NCBI GenBank assembly: GCA_963676395.1 | Contig: OY781066.1 | Coordinates: forward strand, 1,760,001 to 1,824,000 | Source of the DNA: a bacterium | GTDB taxonomy: Bacteria; Fidelibacterota; Fidelibacteria; Fidelibacterales; Fidelibacteraceae | Direction: 5' to 3' | Length of the DNA stretch: 64,000 nt | Shown: in pieces, positions 18,001 through 24,000 of the stretch | How positions within the stretch are numbered: position 1 is the stretch's first letter | Layout: the number at the start of each line of letters is the position of its first letter | Program-made: the position numbers

Positions 18001-21000
18001 CTGTAAATGAATACTTTCTAAATAATTCTTTAGCTTATTTTATGATAGGTAGTTTAAATATTTATGATCCGCCAATTTCCGGTAGTGAATTTGCAAATAG
18101 ATTTCATATAATGTCACTGTCAGAAATATATTCAAGTGAAAATCAAATGAGAGAAGCGTTTGAAGGAGTAGGGATAAAAACACCTTGGGTCGCAATTTCA
18201 CTGGCGATCTTGATAGATGGTGATATTACTATTACACATATTTATCGAGCACCCGGACCTAATGTTTATGAAGGTGCATGGGAAAGAGTAGAAGTAGAAT
18301 AATAAAAAAAACAAATTAAAATTTAAAAGCCATGCTTAAGCATGGCTTTTTTATTGGAATTCGTATTGATTAAATGTTTATGTGTTTATAACTCATGTAT
18401 GAAGCTATATCAATTTAGGGCGGGGGGAGAAATTCATACAATATCCCAACCCTTCGGGGTTTAAACCGTAAAAGGTGCTTGAACCAATTTGTGTAGATAC
18501 CCCGGCATAAAAAGTCAGGCAATGAATAATACACTATTTATGATAAATTTAATTACAGCGCAATTGCCATCTGTCAATCGTTAATTGCCCATTGTTTCAG
18601 CTTCTTTTTTACTTTCTTTAGACTTATATTAGAAATTTGGTACTCGTTGAAACAAAAAGTGAATTCATTGCATCTTAATACTGTGAAATATCTAAGAAAA
18701 ATATTCCTGTTGCTACTGGCAATAACAGTGGTGTTTGCAGAAAATGAAGCCATAGAATTACTTCACGCCGTAACGATGCAAAGGGTTAATCCGGAGGTCG
18801 ACAGGAATGCTCCAGATAGCAGGGGGTCTTACCTGATGTTTGATAAAGAGGTCCATCTTAAACAAGGGGATGTTCACCTTTACGCTGATCGGGTATATCA
18901 ATACGTAGATCTTGATATTTTACGCCTTCTTGGAAATGTAAAGATATTTGATGATAGTGTTACGGTCGAATTTGAGGAGGGTGAATACAATACAGATACC
19001 AAAGATCTTGAAGTGCCCTCGGCTTTTTCTATTGATTATGACGGACGACGTTTTTCTGCATTATCACTTACCGGAAATCTTGATAAAGATGTTTATCTTG
19101 CAAAAGGAGAGGTGGAAATCTCTGATAGCATGTCATATGCTTATGCAGATTCTTTACGTTTTGATAGAGAAAATGAGCGAGCATGGCTATATGGTGAAGC
19201 TTTTATGAGCGATACGGTAAATATGCTCACCATGAGAGGGTCCGAATTGGAATATAGATTAGATAGCGATGAATTTTTTGGTCATAAAGATGCCTCTGTT
19301 TATGAAAGCAATAAAGATGGCAAGAAGCGTTTTGAGGTTTTTGCCGGTCATTTACAAGGGGATATGAATGCCGGATCTATGATTGCAACACAACATGTGT
19401 TTGTTTTACAGGATTCATCTTCTGCTTGGTGCGATTCACTATATTACAATGATTCTTTACAGATCGTCGAGTTCCACGGAGAAGCTCATCTACGGTATCA
19501 AGATATCGATATGTATGGCCCTGAAATGTACTTGGAATTTTATCGCGATAGACTGGGGACTCTTCGTGCCCCCAGAGATCCGCGCATAACATTGAGTGAA
19601 GAAGGGTATATAGGTAAAGATTCAACAAATCTTGTAGAAAAGGTGTCCAATGTTAAGGCTAAAGACCTTCTGCTTAAATTCAATTCTGAAGATCAACCGG
19701 AGTGGATGGATGTAAGCGGAATGGTCGAATCCGAGTATCATGTTTTTAAAGACTCTGTGTACAAAGGTTTAAATAATATGACTTCTGATACCTTGCACAT
19801 TGTTTTTGATGATGGCGAGGTTGCCGATCTTTTTGCGATCTTTGGTGTGGAAGGTGTTTTTGAACCCGATACGTCATATACCGAAATGGATACAATGGTC
19901 ACGTATTCGGGTGATGAGGCTCATTATTCTATCAAGAATGATAATATGTTCGTTTATCCATCATCCAATATGAGATATGGAAATATCAAGTTAAAAGCCG
20001 ATACCATGAAGATTGATTGGAAGACGAATATTCTATACGCTATTCCGGGCAAGAATGGTGAACGGCCCGAATTTGTACAAAATGATGATGACCCGGTTTA
20101 TGGTGATCTTTTTGAATATAATCTAGATACGCAAAGAGGTAGAATCACCAAGGGGAAAACCAATATCGATGACGGCTATTATCAGGGGAAAACCGTATTG
20201 AAAACCGAGGATGATCCTTTATATGTTACTAAAGGTGTTTTTTCTACCTGTGATTTGGAGGAACCTCATTTCTGTGTTGAAGCAAAAAAAATGAAAGTTA
20301 TTCCGGGAGATCGTGTTTTTGCTCAAGATCTGACCCTTAAGGTGATGAATATTCCTTTACTGTATATTCCCTCTCTTTTTATATCTATAGAAGAGGGGAA
20401 ACGTCGAAGCGGATGGATAATTCCGGGTTTCGTGCGACAATCTTACAGGGGAACGGGTATAAATGATTTTGGTTACTACTGGGCGCCAAATGATTATTAT
20501 GATGCACGTTTGGTTTTGGATTTTTATGATGGTCAAGGTATTACAGCCGAGCTTCGACAGCGCTATGCTTTGACGCATTATATTAATAAAGGGGAACTGG
20601 GTTTAAAGTATTGGAATAATTTTTTAGCCAAAACCCCCAAACAAGGTTTTGAGATCTCTATGGATCATTCTCAAAATATCGGACAAAAGTCTAGACTAAT
20701 TATTGCGGGTAGATATACAAACGATGCAACACGATATGAAGAGGAGGTTGAGATCGAAGACCAACTTGAACAGCAAATGATTTCAAGTGGTTCTTTTAGT
20801 ACCTCTTTGGGGCCTTTTAACATGAGTGTATCTGCATCACACAAGCAAGATCTTTTAACCGGAAATTCAAAAACAAGTTTTCCCTCATTATCAATTTCTA
20901 AGTCACAGTCTAGTTTATTCAAGCGAAAAAGCAATAGTGTGCCGGAGCAATGGTATCATAAAATTAAGTATGGGCTTTCTTCCAAGATGACTAATACTTA

Positions 21001-24000
21001 TACACACAGCTATGATTATTCCGACAGTACTGTCACAGAAAACGATACGATCATCAATAAATACTATATTGATGATAGCAAGAATAAAATGGTAACCGAA
21101 GCCGGTGTTCAATATTCCGATAAAATATTTGGCTTTTTAACTGTCCGACCATATATGAATTATTATGAGGATTGGACCATGAAATATTATGCTCCTATCA
21201 TGCAAAATGATTCGGCACTTGTTGATACTAATGGTACTTTGCAGTTACAAGAGATAAATGCTTTCAAGCGCCGTAGTCGTTATGATATGGGTGCTTCGGC
21301 TTCAACGACTTTTTACGGTGTTTTTAATCTTAATATTGGGCCTTTGGAAGCGATTCGTCATACGCTTGGTATGAGTATAAATTATAAATATAAGCCAGAT
21401 CAAAGTAAGAACCCAGATTACGTATATCAAGGTTATGGAACCGATGGTTCGGAAATATATTATGATTATTTTCAAAATACGGGCTTAATGACAACGCCAA
21501 ATTCAGGTAATCAAACCTTTAATATGAGTTTTTCACATAAGTTTGATGCGAAAACAAAGAATAAAAATGCTGAAGTTAAGAAGATAAACTTTTTAACGTT
21601 AACCCACAGTATTAATTTTTTAGAGGATTCATTTCAATTTTCGAATATTTCTGCTAGATCTTCCATAAGAAATATACCGGTGTTGGGGGATCTAAATATT
21701 AATGCGACTTTCGATCCTTATGCTTACCGTATAGATGATGAAGATGCAGGGACATTTACCAGAATAAATCGATTAACAATTCCTAGAATAACATCTCTGA
21801 GAATAGGAACGTCTTTGAAAATAAAAGAAGGGAAACTTAAACGTGTGGTAGATAGACAAAATATCACTATAGATTCTACCATGCAGAATGTTAACGAGTC
21901 GCTTAAACCACCTAAAAATGCTGATAATGGTTTTTCTAACTGGAGTATTTCGTCTGAAATAAGTTATGACTATTCGGCGTCAAACCCTTTGAATGTTAAT
22001 AATAAATTATTGGTTTATACAACGATTCAGGCACAATTAACACCAAAATGGAAGGCTAAATATAAGATTAATTTTAATGTCCTGGACCAAAAGATCACCG
22101 ATCAAAGATTGTCCTTAAGTCGGGATATGCATTGTTGGGTGCTTTCGTTAGATTATCAGCCCATGAGGAATTATGTGTGGATACGATTGAATGCGAAATC
22201 CTCATTGTTAAAAGATTTTAAACTACTTCAACACAAAAATTATTAGAGTTATGGATCAAGATTACATTAAGATTATTTTTCCTAAGGATCCCGCAGTTGC
22301 TATTGTATTGGAAGTGCTCATGGATGAAGCAATGGTGCTTTCATATGAAACCACCGACTACGATCTATCCGTACTTCACCTTTGGGAAGAACGCGACAAT
22401 TTATTAAAAAAATTGAGTAAGCTATTACCGGACATTAAATGGAAAGAAGAGAAGATAGAAAGTCGGGATTGGAATCAAACCTGGATTGACGGCTTTCAAC
22501 CTATTCGCATTGCGAAAAAGTTTTGGGTGACACCACCCTGGCAGGAAGAAAAGATCCCAGATGATCATGTAAAGGTTATTATTAATCCAAGTAATGCATT
22601 TGGCACAGGTACGCACGAGTCCACCTTTCTTGCTTTAAAACTTATGCAGACCATGCTTAAGAAAGGTGATAATATTATCGATCTCGGTTGTGGGTCGGGA
22701 ATACTCTCGATTGCCGCCAAAAAAATGGGTGCGGCAAATATCTATGCAACGGACTTTGATCCTGAGATCGAAAACAATATTAACGAAAATCTCAAGCTAA
22801 ATGGGATCAATGATATTAAGTGGGATATTACAAATGTATTAAAGCACGATACATATGCTTGTGATCTGGCTTTGATCAATATACAAAAACACGTGATCTT
22901 ACCGCTTTTAAAGCGTTTTAGCGTTGCAAAAGACCGTCCTAATCGTGTAATTTTAGCCGGTCTTTTACATGAGCATCGTAAAGAAATCCGGAACGCTCTG
23001 AAAAAACAGGGGTATAAGATACTTAAAATTTATCGAAAAAATGAATGGATCGCCATATCGGCAGTCCACTGGAGAAAGAATGAAAAATAAACAATCAATT
23101 GTTTTGTCACTTTTGTTGGCGGTCTTCTTGGGTTCCTGTGGCCCAAACTATCCGGATCCCGAAGTACCTTTAACATATCCTCAGCCACAATTGGATGAAC
23201 GAGTATTAAGTTATAATGATATTCGCGATGAAATGCATTGTGAGGTTAAAGTAAATTATGATTCAAGTTTTACCGAATTGCTTGCAATAGTCGAAGCTCA
23301 GGGTTTTGAAACAGATACATTTACCTTGATCTTGAATGATGCCGGTTTGCTGGGTGATGCCTTGGAAGGAGATGGTATTTATTCCAGAAATACCGATATG
23401 GATCGAATCGATAGCATAGATGGTCAATTGCTTGTAAATTTTAAATTATATCGTGATGATGAACTGTTGAAATCAGCCGTGGATTCATTACCTGTTTCTG
23501 CAAACTTGCCTCCCTCGATCACAGAGATCAGTATGCCAGATACCATCGTTCGTCCTGAAATCGGAATAAACGAGCTGCTGATCTATTTGAGTGTAGATGA
23601 CCCTAATGGTGTACATGATGTCACTTCGGCCTATTTTCAGGTAAAAAACAATACAACCGGATTATGGAGCACCGATTATCCCATGAATGATGAGGGTGAA
23701 ACAGGCGATCAAGTTGCGGGTGATGGTATATTTTCCACCGGTTTGAATATTTCTTCGGCGAATTCTGCTGCAACGAATTATTTTAGATTCAGAGTAAAAG
23801 ACACAGCCGCTAATTTTTCTGAATGGAGTGTGGACTCCGTGGTGGTGAGGTAGATATGAAAAAATATTTAATTGCAATTTTGATCTCAACTTTTTCGATT
23901 GCCTTTGCTTTACCTTTTGCAGTTGCTTATGAGAAAGATTCAACTTTGGTTTATGATGGTATTGGAAGCAATGCGGTCACGGATATACGTCAAGTAAACG

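Follow-up and report, generated by a model that had tools for sequence, protein, structure and literature searches.

Lipid A and Kdo synthesis have been lost in this diderm bacterium and throughout its lineage, and the results support the loss as real. We give a probability of roughly 0.7 to the reading that the loss is ancestral, that the cell has stayed diderm and that its Lpt system keeps exporting cargo other than LPS. The common ancestor of the genus would have deleted lpxD-lpxC-lpxA, lpxB and lpxK together with kdsA, kdsB and kdsD, one by one, and the cell would have remained diderm with BamA, Skp, the T9SS and LptB, LptC, LptF, LptG, LptE and LptD. The Lpt system of this lineage would always have had cargo besides LPS, and would have continued to export it once LPS was lost. 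The genus is a natural test case for non-LPS Lpt cargo, with the LPS-positive sister genera as built-in controls. The genus name given in an earlier survey, together with one paper, places it in phylum Fidelibacterota, within a class whose bacteria take cell-wall material from their neighbours. Feature coordinates are positions in the window, the whole 64,000-nucleotide stretch of contig OY781066.1 that was analysed.

Loss of lipid A and Kdo genes across the genus

The focal genome is one closed contig of 2,335,625 bp and is 95.3% complete. A survey of the genome had reported no gene for LpxA, LpxC, LpxD, LpxB, LpxK, WaaA, KdsA or KdsB, and this is borne out by tblastn and by profile searches, each of which matched control genomes. 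Across the whole genome the LpxC profile has no match at E ≤ 1, the LpxB and LpxA C-domain profiles have none, and the LpxK profile finds nothing beyond a 16.5-bit P-loop match; the best scores are 11.7 bits for WaaA and 14.7 bits for the LpxD N-domain, and the KdsA model reaches 121–123 bits against a cut-off of 314. Queried by tblastn with the proteins of a sister genome, the focal genome yields no match to LpxC at E ≤ 1e-3, to LpxB and LpxK at E ≤ 1e-8, or to KdsB and KdsD at E ≤ 0.01, and KdsA finds DAHP-synthase paralogues only. Judged by homology, the genome is without LpxA, LpxC, LpxD, LpxB, LpxK, WaaA, KdsA and KdsB, and KdsD is likewise absent. Weak LpxA/LpxD-like matches at 97.6 and 104.5 kb were rejected, being NeuD/PglB-type sugar acetyltransferases.

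The survey had also described the loss as common to the genus and LpxC as kept by its sister genera, and the distribution across the order agrees. None of the 21 other species in the genus has LpxC, versus 13 of 13 genomes of other genera, and the figures for LpxK are 0 of 21 and 12 of 13; most genomes of the genus are 65–95% complete. Strong KdsB matches are present in 5/6 and 4/5 genomes of the two LPS-positive sister genera that serve as control clades (g2 and g3, respectively), and the genus has only a 26–38-bit paralogue.

Synteny with a sister genome (G003) locates the deletions. The first site reads uppS-bamA-skp-lpxD-lpxC-lpxA-orf-dxr in G003 and uppS-bamA-skp-orf224-dxr in the focal genome, which retains bamA and skp and has no remnant of lpxD, lpxC or lpxA between skp and dxr. 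All 15 genus loci have skp without lpxD after it (14 of them reach dxr), whereas lpxD comes directly after skp in G003 and at 7/7 loci from other genera. At the second site, gatC-kdsB-pyrG-kdsA-kdsC-kdsD-lptC-lptB-rpoN-hslV-hslU in G003 corresponds to gatC-pyrG-kdsC-lptC-lptB-rpoN-hslV-hslU, and the interleaved lptC and lptB have been spared. A new observation here is that the LPS genes were removed individually, with no remnants left, from two operons that are otherwise collinear. Because the skp junction without lpxD is common to the genus loci, it points to one event in the common ancestor. The survey had called the loss recent; of the 136 genus LptD pairs, 125 have saturated synonymous sites, so the loss is instead old.

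It is highly improbable that LPS is still present, whether made by a non-homologous route or scavenged from neighbours, as lipid A or LPS fragments, and re-exported by Lpt. Such a route would fit the KdsC-family phosphatase kept in the absence of KdsA, KdsB and KdsD, the pattern of constraint on LptD, which is the same as in LPS carriers, and the habits of the class, which depends on cell-wall fragments of other bacteria and all members of which are described in the available part of one report as being without peptidoglycan synthesis genes and recycling muropeptides (PMC11652737). Against it, no trace is left of eight or more genes from at least three loci, and the genome has no member of the Wzy_C O-antigen ligase family. 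Nor is a route for taking up lipid A or LPS known to us.

LptD and the retained Lpt machinery

Window positions 18683–22246 (plus strand) encode a genuine Bacteroidota-type LptD of 1187 aa from a GTG start. The open frame spans 18647–22246, reaching back to a TTG at 18647 (1199 aa), and matches Pfam LptD_2 over residues 559–1025 (1.9e-70, 238 bits; cut-off 22.5) and LptD_N (2.2e-6, 28.3 bits; cut-off 20.4). Among the control genomes, LptD_2 matched B. thetaiotaomicron only. The AlphaFold model has a mean pLDDT of 72.7, and its top Foldseek matches are all solved LptD chains (best 8h1s_A, E 1.5e-21), in agreement with the survey's assignment. The start at 18836 given there needs correction: this ATG sits inside the gene and truncates the protein, and the GTG at 18683 is where the signal peptide starts. 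Orthologues at 3/3 genus loci keep the N-terminus, aligning from residues 1–8 of the longer frame.

The translated signal peptide (MKYLRKIFLLLLAITVVFA; 18683..18739, plus strand) coincides with a helix at residues 2–18 of the model. It is followed on the same strand by a predicted periplasmic all-β ‘taco’ domain (residues ~25–480; 18755..20122) of about 38 consecutive strands, modelled with pLDDT mostly 80–90, with LptD_N/OstA_2 matches at its start. This domain is several times longer than the 113-position LptD_N profile, and the ~450-residue β-taco may itself form the periplasmic bridge. The C-terminal transmembrane β-barrel is assigned to residues ~590–1171 (20450..22195, plus strand) from the model, the LptD_2 match and Foldseek matches to LptDE structures.

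The other Lpt components are also in place. LptB (358 bits; cut-off 240), LptC (59 bits; cut-off 38) and LptE (41 bits; cut-off 23) are present, and the LptF-like and LptG-like genes clearly match Pfam LptF_LptG, with NCBIfam scores below the cut-offs, so that the LptE and two LptF/G genes listed by the survey stand. Of the rpoN-lptB-lptA/C-kdsC cluster that it proposed, synteny and scores uphold rpoN, lptB, lptC and kdsC; a separate LptA is not upheld, and across the order, LPS-positive genomes included, no model detected one. Among the 21 other species of the genus, LptD_2 is found in 20, LptF/G in all 21, and LptC and LptE in 16 each, and their scores match those in LPS-positive genera. The five genomes in which LptC is missed, and the five in which LptE is missed, each include one that is at least 93% complete; we assume that fragmented assemblies account for these misses.

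Purifying selection acts on LptD as strongly here as in the LPS-positive sister genera. The omega of LptD in the genus is 0.066 (range 0.045–0.119; the 11 pairs with dS < 2 out of 136), versus 0.068 in g2 and 0.10 in g3, and the Lpt genes are on this account maintained. The survey had allowed that they might be relics; that they are decaying, or that the pattern was produced by faulty assembly or binning, is scarcely credible. The incompleteness of most genus genomes would favour an artefact, as would the interrupted Lpt frames in two few-contig assemblies (G018 and G019). However, the focal genome is closed, in one contig, the deletion junctions are common to 15 genus loci, and the LptD frames listed for the genus are otherwise open and stop-free, the complete ones being ~1190 aa and some being cut at contig ends. 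G018 and G019 are only 70–84% complete despite having 2–5 contigs, which fits error-rich assemblies.

There is no sign at the sequence level that LptD has been re-specialized. The ratio of LptD to BamA divergence is not raised for the genus, and stem lengths in one tree scale with those in the other. The LPS-positive genera share 169 conserved barrel columns, and the genus has a different fixed residue in only five of them (3%); the same comparison gives 9.6% for g2 and 16.4% for g3. It is because selection on LptD is unchanged and re-tooling is not seen that we favour an Lpt system that carried more than LPS from the outset.

Candidate cargo and outer-leaflet lipid

With the LPS-building genes tested here deleted and LptD intact, the Lpt machine must therefore carry something else. 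We infer the identity of this cargo, and of the outer-leaflet lipid, by analogy, and lipoproteins of the Bacteroidota type and sphingolipids of the Caulobacter/Sphingomonas type are equally good candidates. Surface lipoproteins, as for Bacteroidota LptD, are probable cargo by a little over even odds; for a lipid of the sphingolipid type from the Spt/KDS-reductase pair we put the odds a little under even, and either could be carried along with the other.

The Bacteroidota translocon (F. johnsoniae, B. thetaiotaomicron) is described, in the part of the account available, as exporting both LPS and surface lipoproteins, with LptP conserved across seven more FCB phyla, of which six also conserve LptT (10.64898/2026.10.03.756453). 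The genus shares with it the LptD_2 family, the LptE plug, a long β-taco bridge and membership of the FCB superphylum. Bacteroidota make LPS, whereas the genus is without LPS genes, and the long β-taco is here part of LptD, a separate LptA not being detected. A lipobox scan gives 159 candidate lipoproteins in the focal genome. Unlike in Bacteroidota, these are not enriched for the Bacteroidota-type export signal: positions +2 to +7 carry a net negative charge in 64/159 (0.40), compared with 0.41–0.52 in control windows.

An Lpt system devoted solely to surface lipoproteins, with an outer leaflet of phospholipid beneath lipoproteins and T9SS proteins, is possible but doubtful. It would resemble Borrelia burgdorferi, a diderm without LPS whose Lpt-like system serves surface lipoproteins, flipped by the LptD homologue BB0838, as far as the accessible texts describe it (10.1101/2022.12.21.521298, PMC10353723). 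The Bacteroidota-type LptD and the candidate lipoproteins are consistent with such an exporter; the lack of a position-specific export signal is not. In the available portion of the translocon study, the Borrelia LptD, freed from LPS, has diverged and is predicted to form a 32-strand barrel without LptE (10.64898/2026.10.03.756453), whereas LptE and a canonical, conservative barrel are kept here, a difference that favours a lipid cargo. That all well-covered genus genomes retain Spt also argues against lipoproteins as the sole cargo.

The Spt/KDS-reductase pair is present in the focal genome and in 18 of the 21 other species, missing only from genomes 70–72% complete, and all 16 genus genomes at least 76% complete have an Spt orthologue. 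As the survey had noted, Spt also occurs in LPS-positive sister genera: the pair is found in g2 and g3, although two g2 genomes of at least 90% completeness lack Spt. Its presence in LPS-positive genera makes it at best a pre-adaptation. Both enzymes score below the NCBIfam cut-offs (Spt 519 versus 640; KDS reductase 306 versus 400), and no ceramide synthase was identified; beside spt there is no head-group gene either. The product could presumably be another lipid of the enzyme family, such as a sulfonolipid.

Retention across the genus of a pair that is dispensable in nearly complete LPS-positive genomes would be expected if a sphingolipid-based glycolipid had replaced LPS, with Lpt carrying the lipid and the T9SS sortase PorU anchoring cargo to it. 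We regard this as unlikely, for the reasons just given and because lptF and lptG are single-copy and lie far from spt and from each other, whereas in Caulobacter and Sphingomonas they sit in a sphingolipid locus. The genome retains PorU (613 bits; cut-off 420), a PorZ-like gene (167 bits versus a cut-off of 260) and 77 matches to T9SS sorting domains, fewer than the more than 80 cargo proteins that the survey had counted, but no result here ties PorU or PorZ to a lipid. Such an envelope would be Sphingomonas-like with a re-wired T9SS.

Precedents exist in Alphaproteobacteria. Sphingomonas, according to the available text of a preprint, is without LpxC, LpxB and WaaA, yet has sphingolipid genes and a whole Lpt system (LptA, LptD, LptE and LptFG homologues), ‘perhaps to traffic sphingolipids’ (10.64898/2026.04.12.717747). 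Since this pattern is already stated there, finding it here is less new; the retention of Lpt without LPS genes is extended to a new phylum. The only lptFG pair of S. wittichii lies, as far as that source shows, inside the sphingolipid locus. The genus further differs from Sphingomonas in its Bacteroidota-type LptD_2 protein with a very long β-taco and in its T9SS; the Sphingomonas glycosphingolipid is known from chemistry. In Caulobacter crescentus, anionic sphingolipids make lipid A dispensable (PMC9393093, available part), and LptF2/G2/C2 are needed for sphingolipid transport, using LptB (10.64898/2026.04.12.717747, available part). That case concerns a laboratory mutant and a duplicated, dedicated LptFGC; here the loss is natural and ancient, and LptF, LptG and LptC are single-copy.

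The lptD neighbourhood

Two upstream neighbours of lptD are conserved at 3/3 genus loci: a D-Ala-D-Ala carboxypeptidase of family S13 (14567..16063, plus strand; Pfam 2.9e-95) and a hybrid histidine kinase with a receiver domain (16147..17619, minus strand; Pfam). Directly upstream of lptD, the lipobox scan predicts a 155-aa lipoprotein (17835..18302, plus strand), which has no family match and no counterpart at three genus loci or three loci of other genera; seen in this genome only, it falls outside the conserved lptD locus.

The downstream genes are all on the plus strand. Directly after lptD lies prmA, for the L11 methyltransferase (22251..23090; Pfam PrmA 4.2e-55), followed by a gene for a 270-aa protein with a ‘choice-of-anchor X’ domain (23041..23853; NCBIfam NF041940, 36.1 bits; cut-off 25); both are syntenic at 3/3 genus loci. 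The next gene encodes a 536-aa protein (23823..25433), possibly a β-propeller with an Ig-like tail, to judge from weak BNR, Reg_prop and FlgD_ig matches in Pfam. It was rejected as a PorZ orthologue: the PorZ model gives 15 bits, and a gene at another place in the genome is the better PorZ-like match. Not near lptD in three loci of other genera, a gene for a 307-aa outer-membrane barrel of the PorV/PorQ family (25443..26366; NCBIfam NF033709, 90.2 bits; cut-off 90) accompanies it at 3/3 genus loci.

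Lipid A and Kdo genes and their deletion sites

As the survey had claimed, this genome (a single 2,335,625-bp contig with a completeness rating of 95.3%) lacks the lipid A and Kdo synthesis genes searched for; profile searches and tblastn with sister-genome proteins agree on this point. The absence of the Raetz pathway covers LpxA, LpxB, LpxC, LpxD, LpxK and WaaA. In six-frame profile searches, for which the control genomes matched every time, LpxC gave no match at E ≤ 1, LpxB and the LpxA C-domain gave none, and the best scores were 16.5 bits for LpxK (a P-loop match), 14.7 bits for the LpxD N-domain and 11.7 bits for WaaA. 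The KdsA model reaches 121–123 bits on two DAHP synthases, against a cut-off of 314. An independent tblastn search used proteins of a sister genome, which are ~50% identical to their orthologues here: LpxC found nothing at E ≤ 1e-3, LpxB and LpxK nothing at E ≤ 1e-8, KdsB and KdsD nothing at E ≤ 0.01, and KdsA only the DAHP-synthase paralogues. The sole matches of LpxA and LpxD, two hexapeptide-repeat proteins, were rejected as candidates: they are NeuD/PglB-type sugar acetyltransferases in a Wzx-RmlA-RmlB-aminotransferase glycan cluster. That cluster (genome 96001-107100) encodes a Wzx-like flippase, RmlA, RmlB, two sugar aminotransferases and three NeuD/PglB-type acetyltransferases.

The loss of LpxC is common to the whole genus, M50B103, and the gene is kept in its sister genera, again as the survey had found. 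Order-wide counts comprise 35 genomes, this one included: 21 from other species of the genus and 13 from four LPS-positive genera (here g2–g5). LpxC is found in 0/21 genomes of the genus versus 13/13 elsewhere (g2, 6/6; g3, 5/5; g4, 1/1; g5, 1/1), and LpxK in 0/21 versus 12/13. Strong KdsB matches (168–205 bits) occur in five of six g2 and four of five g3 genomes and in none of the 21; within the genus the model detects only a 26–38-bit paralogue that is present elsewhere too. In g4 and g5 (genomes G001 and G002) the KdsB-family match is only ~90 bits, and the g5 genome, which has LpxC, LpxK and LpxA, scores 125 bits for KdsA, below the cut-off of 314; these two genera may have an LPS core unlike the one in g2 and g3. 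Two further families are uninformative, Wzy_C/WaaL being patchy (12/21 in the genus, none in this genome, 4/6 in g2, 2/5 in g3) and MlaA (PF04333) being absent from all five genomes tested, LPS-positive ones included.

Comparison with G003, a closed g2 genome, locates two deletion sites. At the first, uppS-bamA-skp-lpxD-lpxC-lpxA-orf213-dxr-rseP in G003 corresponds to uppS-bamA-skp-orf224-dxr here, and the 700 bases between skp and dxr hold no trace of lpx genes beyond chance-level matches. Among loci returned by a BamA search, after exclusion of two truncated genus loci (G010, G016) and of g2 Omp85 paralogue loci, skp is followed by something other than lpxD in all 15 genus loci, 14 of which reach dxr within ~750 bases; lpxD directly follows skp in 7/7 genomes of g2, g3 and g5. 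The gap where lpxD-lpxC-lpxA lay holds a gene for a 224-residue signal-peptide protein (genome 1432805-1433479), which has no family match and no similarity to the 213-residue protein of the same site in G003. It is weakly conserved (23–45% identity) in 10 of the 15 genus loci, and in three loci without it skp and dxr lie close together. In 5/6 g2 genomes an extra Omp85-family gene of 502–612 codons (in G003, C1:1526788-1527678) outscores BamA on the Pfam model; it has no counterpart in the LPS-less genus at E ≤ 1e-30.

At the second site, gatC-kdsB-pyrG-kdsA-kdsC-kdsD-lptC-lptB-rpoN-hslV-hslU in G003 corresponds to gatC-pyrG-kdsC-lptC-lptB-rpoN-hslV-hslU here. Three Kdo genes have thus been removed singly from a collinear operon and the interleaved lptC and lptB spared; searches for kds remnants at this site returned only chance-level matches. 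A KdsC-family sugar-phosphate phosphatase, 53% identical to that of G003, is kept between pyrG and lptC despite the deletion of kdsA, kdsB and kdsD (genome 821052-821696; TIGR01670, 130 bits, cut-off 107). The lpxK and lpxB genes, adjacent in G003, have no counterparts in this genome.

Fatty-acid synthesis is intact, with a fabH-fabG-fabF-fabZ cluster adjoining plsX. The FabZ gene of this cluster (genome 419702-420175) stands alone, and a stand-alone FabZ is detected in 16/21 other genomes of the genus. In g3, g4 and g5, FabZ occurs solely as the C-terminal half of a fusion with LpxC, and it is these fusion halves that the stand-alone protein resembles most (44–48% identity, versus 27–38% for two stand-alone FabA-like proteins of G003). 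It looks as though lpxC could be lost only once FabZ had been freed from LpxC.

LptD and the remaining Lpt proteins

The lptD gene lies in a single long open frame at window 18647-22246 on the forward strand. The Pfam LptD_2 domain matches residues 559–1025 of its 1199 (E 1.9e-70, 238.3 bits, cut-off 22.5), and LptD_N scores 28.3 bits against a cut-off of 20.4. The survey identified lptD correctly and placed its start at an ATG, position 18836, that is internal to the gene. Orthologues of three other species of the genus begin to align at residues 1–8 of the longer frame, and a typical signal peptide, MKYLRKIFLLLLAITVVFA, starts at GTG 18683. An AlphaFold model built from a 23-orthologue alignment (mean pLDDT 72.7, pTM 0.41) predicts a signal helix, a continuous all-beta region from residue 25 to ~480 (pLDDT mostly 80–90), a poorly predicted stretch at 489–585 and a large barrel at 590–1171. 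In a Foldseek search of the PDB with this model, the top matches are all LptD chains of LptDE complexes (best 8h1s_A, E 1.5e-21; TM 0.43–0.59, normalised on the target), with unrelated folds appearing only from rank 38 on; phmmer against PDB sequences found no match. By its profile matches and predicted fold the protein is a genuine LptD of the Bacteroidota/FCB type, and its periplasmic beta-taco is unusually long. This length is not an adaptation to the loss of LPS, because LptD frames span ~1170–1220 residues in all five genera of the order.

The survey's full Lpt bridge stands in part. LptB (genome 819307-820035; TIGR04406, 358 bits, cut-off 240), LptC (820243-820827; TIGR04409, 59 bits, cut-off 38) and LptD exceed their cut-offs, as does LptE, the putative plug partner of LptD (65392-65940; PF04390, 41.4 bits, cut-off 23). 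The lptF-like (62452-63867) and lptG-like (730119-731243) genes match Pfam LptF_LptG clearly and fall below the NCBIfam cut-offs. A separate LptA was not detected: across the order, the matches of PF03968 and PF13100 are confined to LptC and the N-terminus of LptD, and the long beta-taco of the LptD model may replace it. Weak PF13100 matches also fall in frames of ~1000 residues, of which that in the genus genome G020 is 63% identical to that in G001 and, by its N-terminal sequence, is presumably SecA-like.

Retention is general in the genus. LptD_2 is present in 20/21 genomes (13/13 in the other genera), LptF/G in 21/21, usually as two genes (13/13), LptC in 16/21 (13/13) and LptE in 16/21 (12/13), with LptC and LptE scores equal to those in LPS-positive genera. 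The LptC match is missing from G021 (95% complete) and that of LptE from G020 (93% complete); as stand-alone FabZ, too, is detected in just 16 of the 21, we assume that misses of these two proteins reflect fragmented assemblies. In G018 and G019 (two and five contigs, rated 70–84% complete) the lptD and lptF/G frames are split or contain stops. These two are probably error-rich long-read assemblies, real pseudogenes being the alternative.

Age of the loss and selection on LptD

FastTree trees of LptD and BamA (30 and 24 rows), midpoint-rooted and with SH-like support only, both set the genus apart from the rest by a branch whose local support is 100%. This split, seen in both trees, and the shared skp-dxr junction suggest that the loss happened once, in the genus ancestor. 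Contrary to the survey, the loss is not recent: LptD identities within the genus are 55–97% (median 67%), and just 11 of the 136 pairs have a synonymous distance below 2. For these 11 usable pairs, in an analysis leaving out G010, G011, G018 and G026, the Nei-Gojobori dN/dS (omega) of LptD is 0.066 (range 0.045–0.119), which speaks against the survey's caveat that the Lpt genes could be relics. The LPS-positive genera give 0.068 (g2, 6/15 pairs usable) and 0.10 (g3, 10/10). Since omega in the genus is on par with these values, purifying selection on LptD has persisted after the loss and is as strong as where LPS is made.

Neither acceleration nor a functional shift of LptD after the loss could be found in divergence ratios, stem lengths or barrel columns. 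The LptD/BamA divergence ratio, computed without the truncated BamA loci of G010 and G016 and the g2 Omp85 paralogue loci, is 1.38–1.56 for pairs involving the genus and 1.42–1.67 for other pairs, and the stem branches of the LptD tree keep proportion with those of the BamA tree. Of the barrel columns conserved in LPS-positive genera, 5/169 are fixed otherwise in the genus; the same test gives 24/251 for g2 and 48/292 for g3 as controls. The taco and linker change somewhat more (8/61 and 8/47 columns), in small numbers.

Candidate cargoes and surroundings of lptD

Genes for making the LPS substrate are missing from the genome, so that the cargo of this LptD, a family member by sequence and fold, would, going by gene content, have to differ from LPS. 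Scavenging of LPS, or its synthesis by a non-homologous route, would avoid this conclusion and is very improbable, notwithstanding a lifestyle that makes scavenging conceivable: the class is described in a published study as lacking peptidoglycan synthesis genes and living on foreign muropeptides (PMC11652737). The same source mentions an 'LPS structure' seen by cryo-EM on the cultured species of the neighbouring genus (PMC11652737). In the account that we favour, Lpt in this lineage would already have been a multi-cargo exporter before LPS was lost; LPS would then have been dropped, and Lpt would have continued unchanged with its remaining cargo. Such an account would explain at once why selection and barrel have not changed and why LptE is kept.

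Published work supplies tested precedents for two cargoes. Surface lipoproteins are slightly the likelier candidate, and by analogy with Bacteroidota we put the probability that they are a cargo at about 0.55; they are compatible with a sphingolipid cargo. A 2026 preprint describes a Bacteroidota LPS translocon with the additional subunits LptN, P, Q, R, S and T, of which LptP is conserved in seven other FCB phyla, six of these having LptT conserved as well, and proposes that surface lipoproteins of Bacteroidota probably move along the LptA bridge (10.64898/2026.10.03.756453). For Borrelia it describes an LptD homologue with a predicted 32-strand barrel and no LptE (10.64898/2026.10.03.756453). 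This genome differs from the Borrelia type, a strongly diverged, enlarged barrel without LptE, in that LptE is present, 5/169 barrel columns are changed and canonical LptDE structures are the best match. A lipobox scan yields 159 candidate lipoproteins. Of these, 64/159 have a net-negative export signal behind the lipidated cysteine, compared with fractions of 0.41–0.52 in control windows placed farther along the proteins; the signal is thus not enriched, with the caveat that the signal of this phylum may differ.

A sphingolipid-type lipid, compatible in turn with lipoprotein cargo, has on similar grounds of analogy slightly less than an even chance of being carried. A second preprint reports that in Caulobacter the LptF2/G2/C2 paralogues of the sphingolipid locus are required for sphingolipid transport and use LptB, that Sphingomonas, which lacks LpxC, LpxB and WaaA, nevertheless has a complete Lpt system, 'perhaps to traffic sphingolipids', and that Bacteroidetes, which also make sphingolipids, have one lptFG pair only (10.64898/2026.04.12.717747). 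This genome shares with the Sphingomonas type the absence of the Raetz genes; unlike that type, its lptFG genes are not in a sphingolipid locus, the lptF-like gene lying at 62 kb, the lptG-like gene at 730 kb and spt at 2,027 kb. The Spt-like gene (genome 2026647-2027900; NF047600, 518.8 bits, cut-off 640) adjoins a gene resembling KDS-reductase (NF049977, 305.8 bits, cut-off 400), and no ceramide synthase was identified in the genome. Spt orthologues occur in 18/21 other species of the genus, being missing only from three genomes that are 70–72% complete, in 4/6 g2 genomes (the two without are 90–92% complete) and in some g3 genomes. Because some g3 genomes carry it, Spt predates the loss of LPS. 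The neighbours of spt encode a glycosidase, a peptidase and a kinase. A GH20 hexosaminidase gene (2020940-2023429) and one for the exo-beta-N-acetylmuramidase NamZ (2034375-2035598) flank the locus, which fits the muropeptide-scavenging lifestyle reported for the class.

The survey's reading went further, in that LPS would have been replaced by a sphingolipid that Lpt carries and that the T9SS sortase uses; as a complete chain this is unlikely. The sortase itself is present, PorU scoring 613 bits on NF033707 (cut-off 420; genome 1961363-1964677), and the genome encodes 77 T9SS sorting domains. PorZ is the protein that delivers anionic LPS. A PorZ-like protein (1219275-1221125) scores 167 bits, below the cut-off of 260, and its orthologues in LPS-positive relatives score 106–199 bits. 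Equally doubtful is a broader proposal, in which Lpt without LPS would be a general amphiphile exporter: unmodified LptDE would deliver both a sphingolipid-type lipid and lipoproteins to the outer leaflet, and a PorU/PorZ-like complex would anchor the ~77 T9SS proteins to a non-LPS anionic lipid. If this were true, the genus would be a natural 'delta-LPS' strain, and LPS transport would not be the essential role of Lpt that the FCB superphylum has conserved.

Non-LPS cargo of Lpt is claimed in two 2026 preprints: surface lipoproteins in Bacteroidota (10.64898/2026.10.03.756453) and sphingolipids in Caulobacter (10.64898/2026.04.12.717747). A second function is hard to isolate in those organisms because LPS export is essential, or nearly so, there. 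In this genus, LPS synthesis is naturally gone and Lpt is under full selection in at least 22 species, LPS-positive sister genera of the same family serve as built-in controls, and a cultured species is reported to exist in the neighbouring genus (PMC11652737). The genus thereby offers a comparative system for Lpt cargo without LPS, for the cause of LPS dispensability and for a T9SS anchor without anionic LPS. Loss of LPS with retention of Lpt is already known from Sphingomonas and spirochaetes; here it occurs in a new phylum, and Fidelibacterota joins the short list of diderms with secondary LPS loss. The novelty lies in how several features come together: the LptDE is of Bacteroidota type, a T9SS is present, sister genera within the family are LPS-positive and the deletion scars are legible gene by gene. 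Literature using the name M50B103 makes no mention of LPS loss, and none of the best-ranked literature matches joins the phylum name with an LPS gene; a report elsewhere is possible.

Downstream of lptD, window 22251-26366 contains prmA followed by genes for a choice-of-anchor-X protein, a 536-residue protein with weak BNR/FlgD_ig matches and a PorV/PorQ-family barrel. This order is found in 3/3 genus loci and is absent around lptD in two g2 loci and one g5 locus. The three genes after prmA form a T9SS-like trio that may have a functional tie to LptD. Upstream, between the kinase gene and lptD, a gene for a predicted 155-residue lipoprotein starts at 17835 and is found in this genome only; 3' of it, at ~18330-18352, a GC-rich hairpin with a T-run looks like an intrinsic terminator. 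Elsewhere in the window are a tmRNA gene (6947-7298, 174 bits) and two tRNA genes (33372-33442 and 34871-34942).
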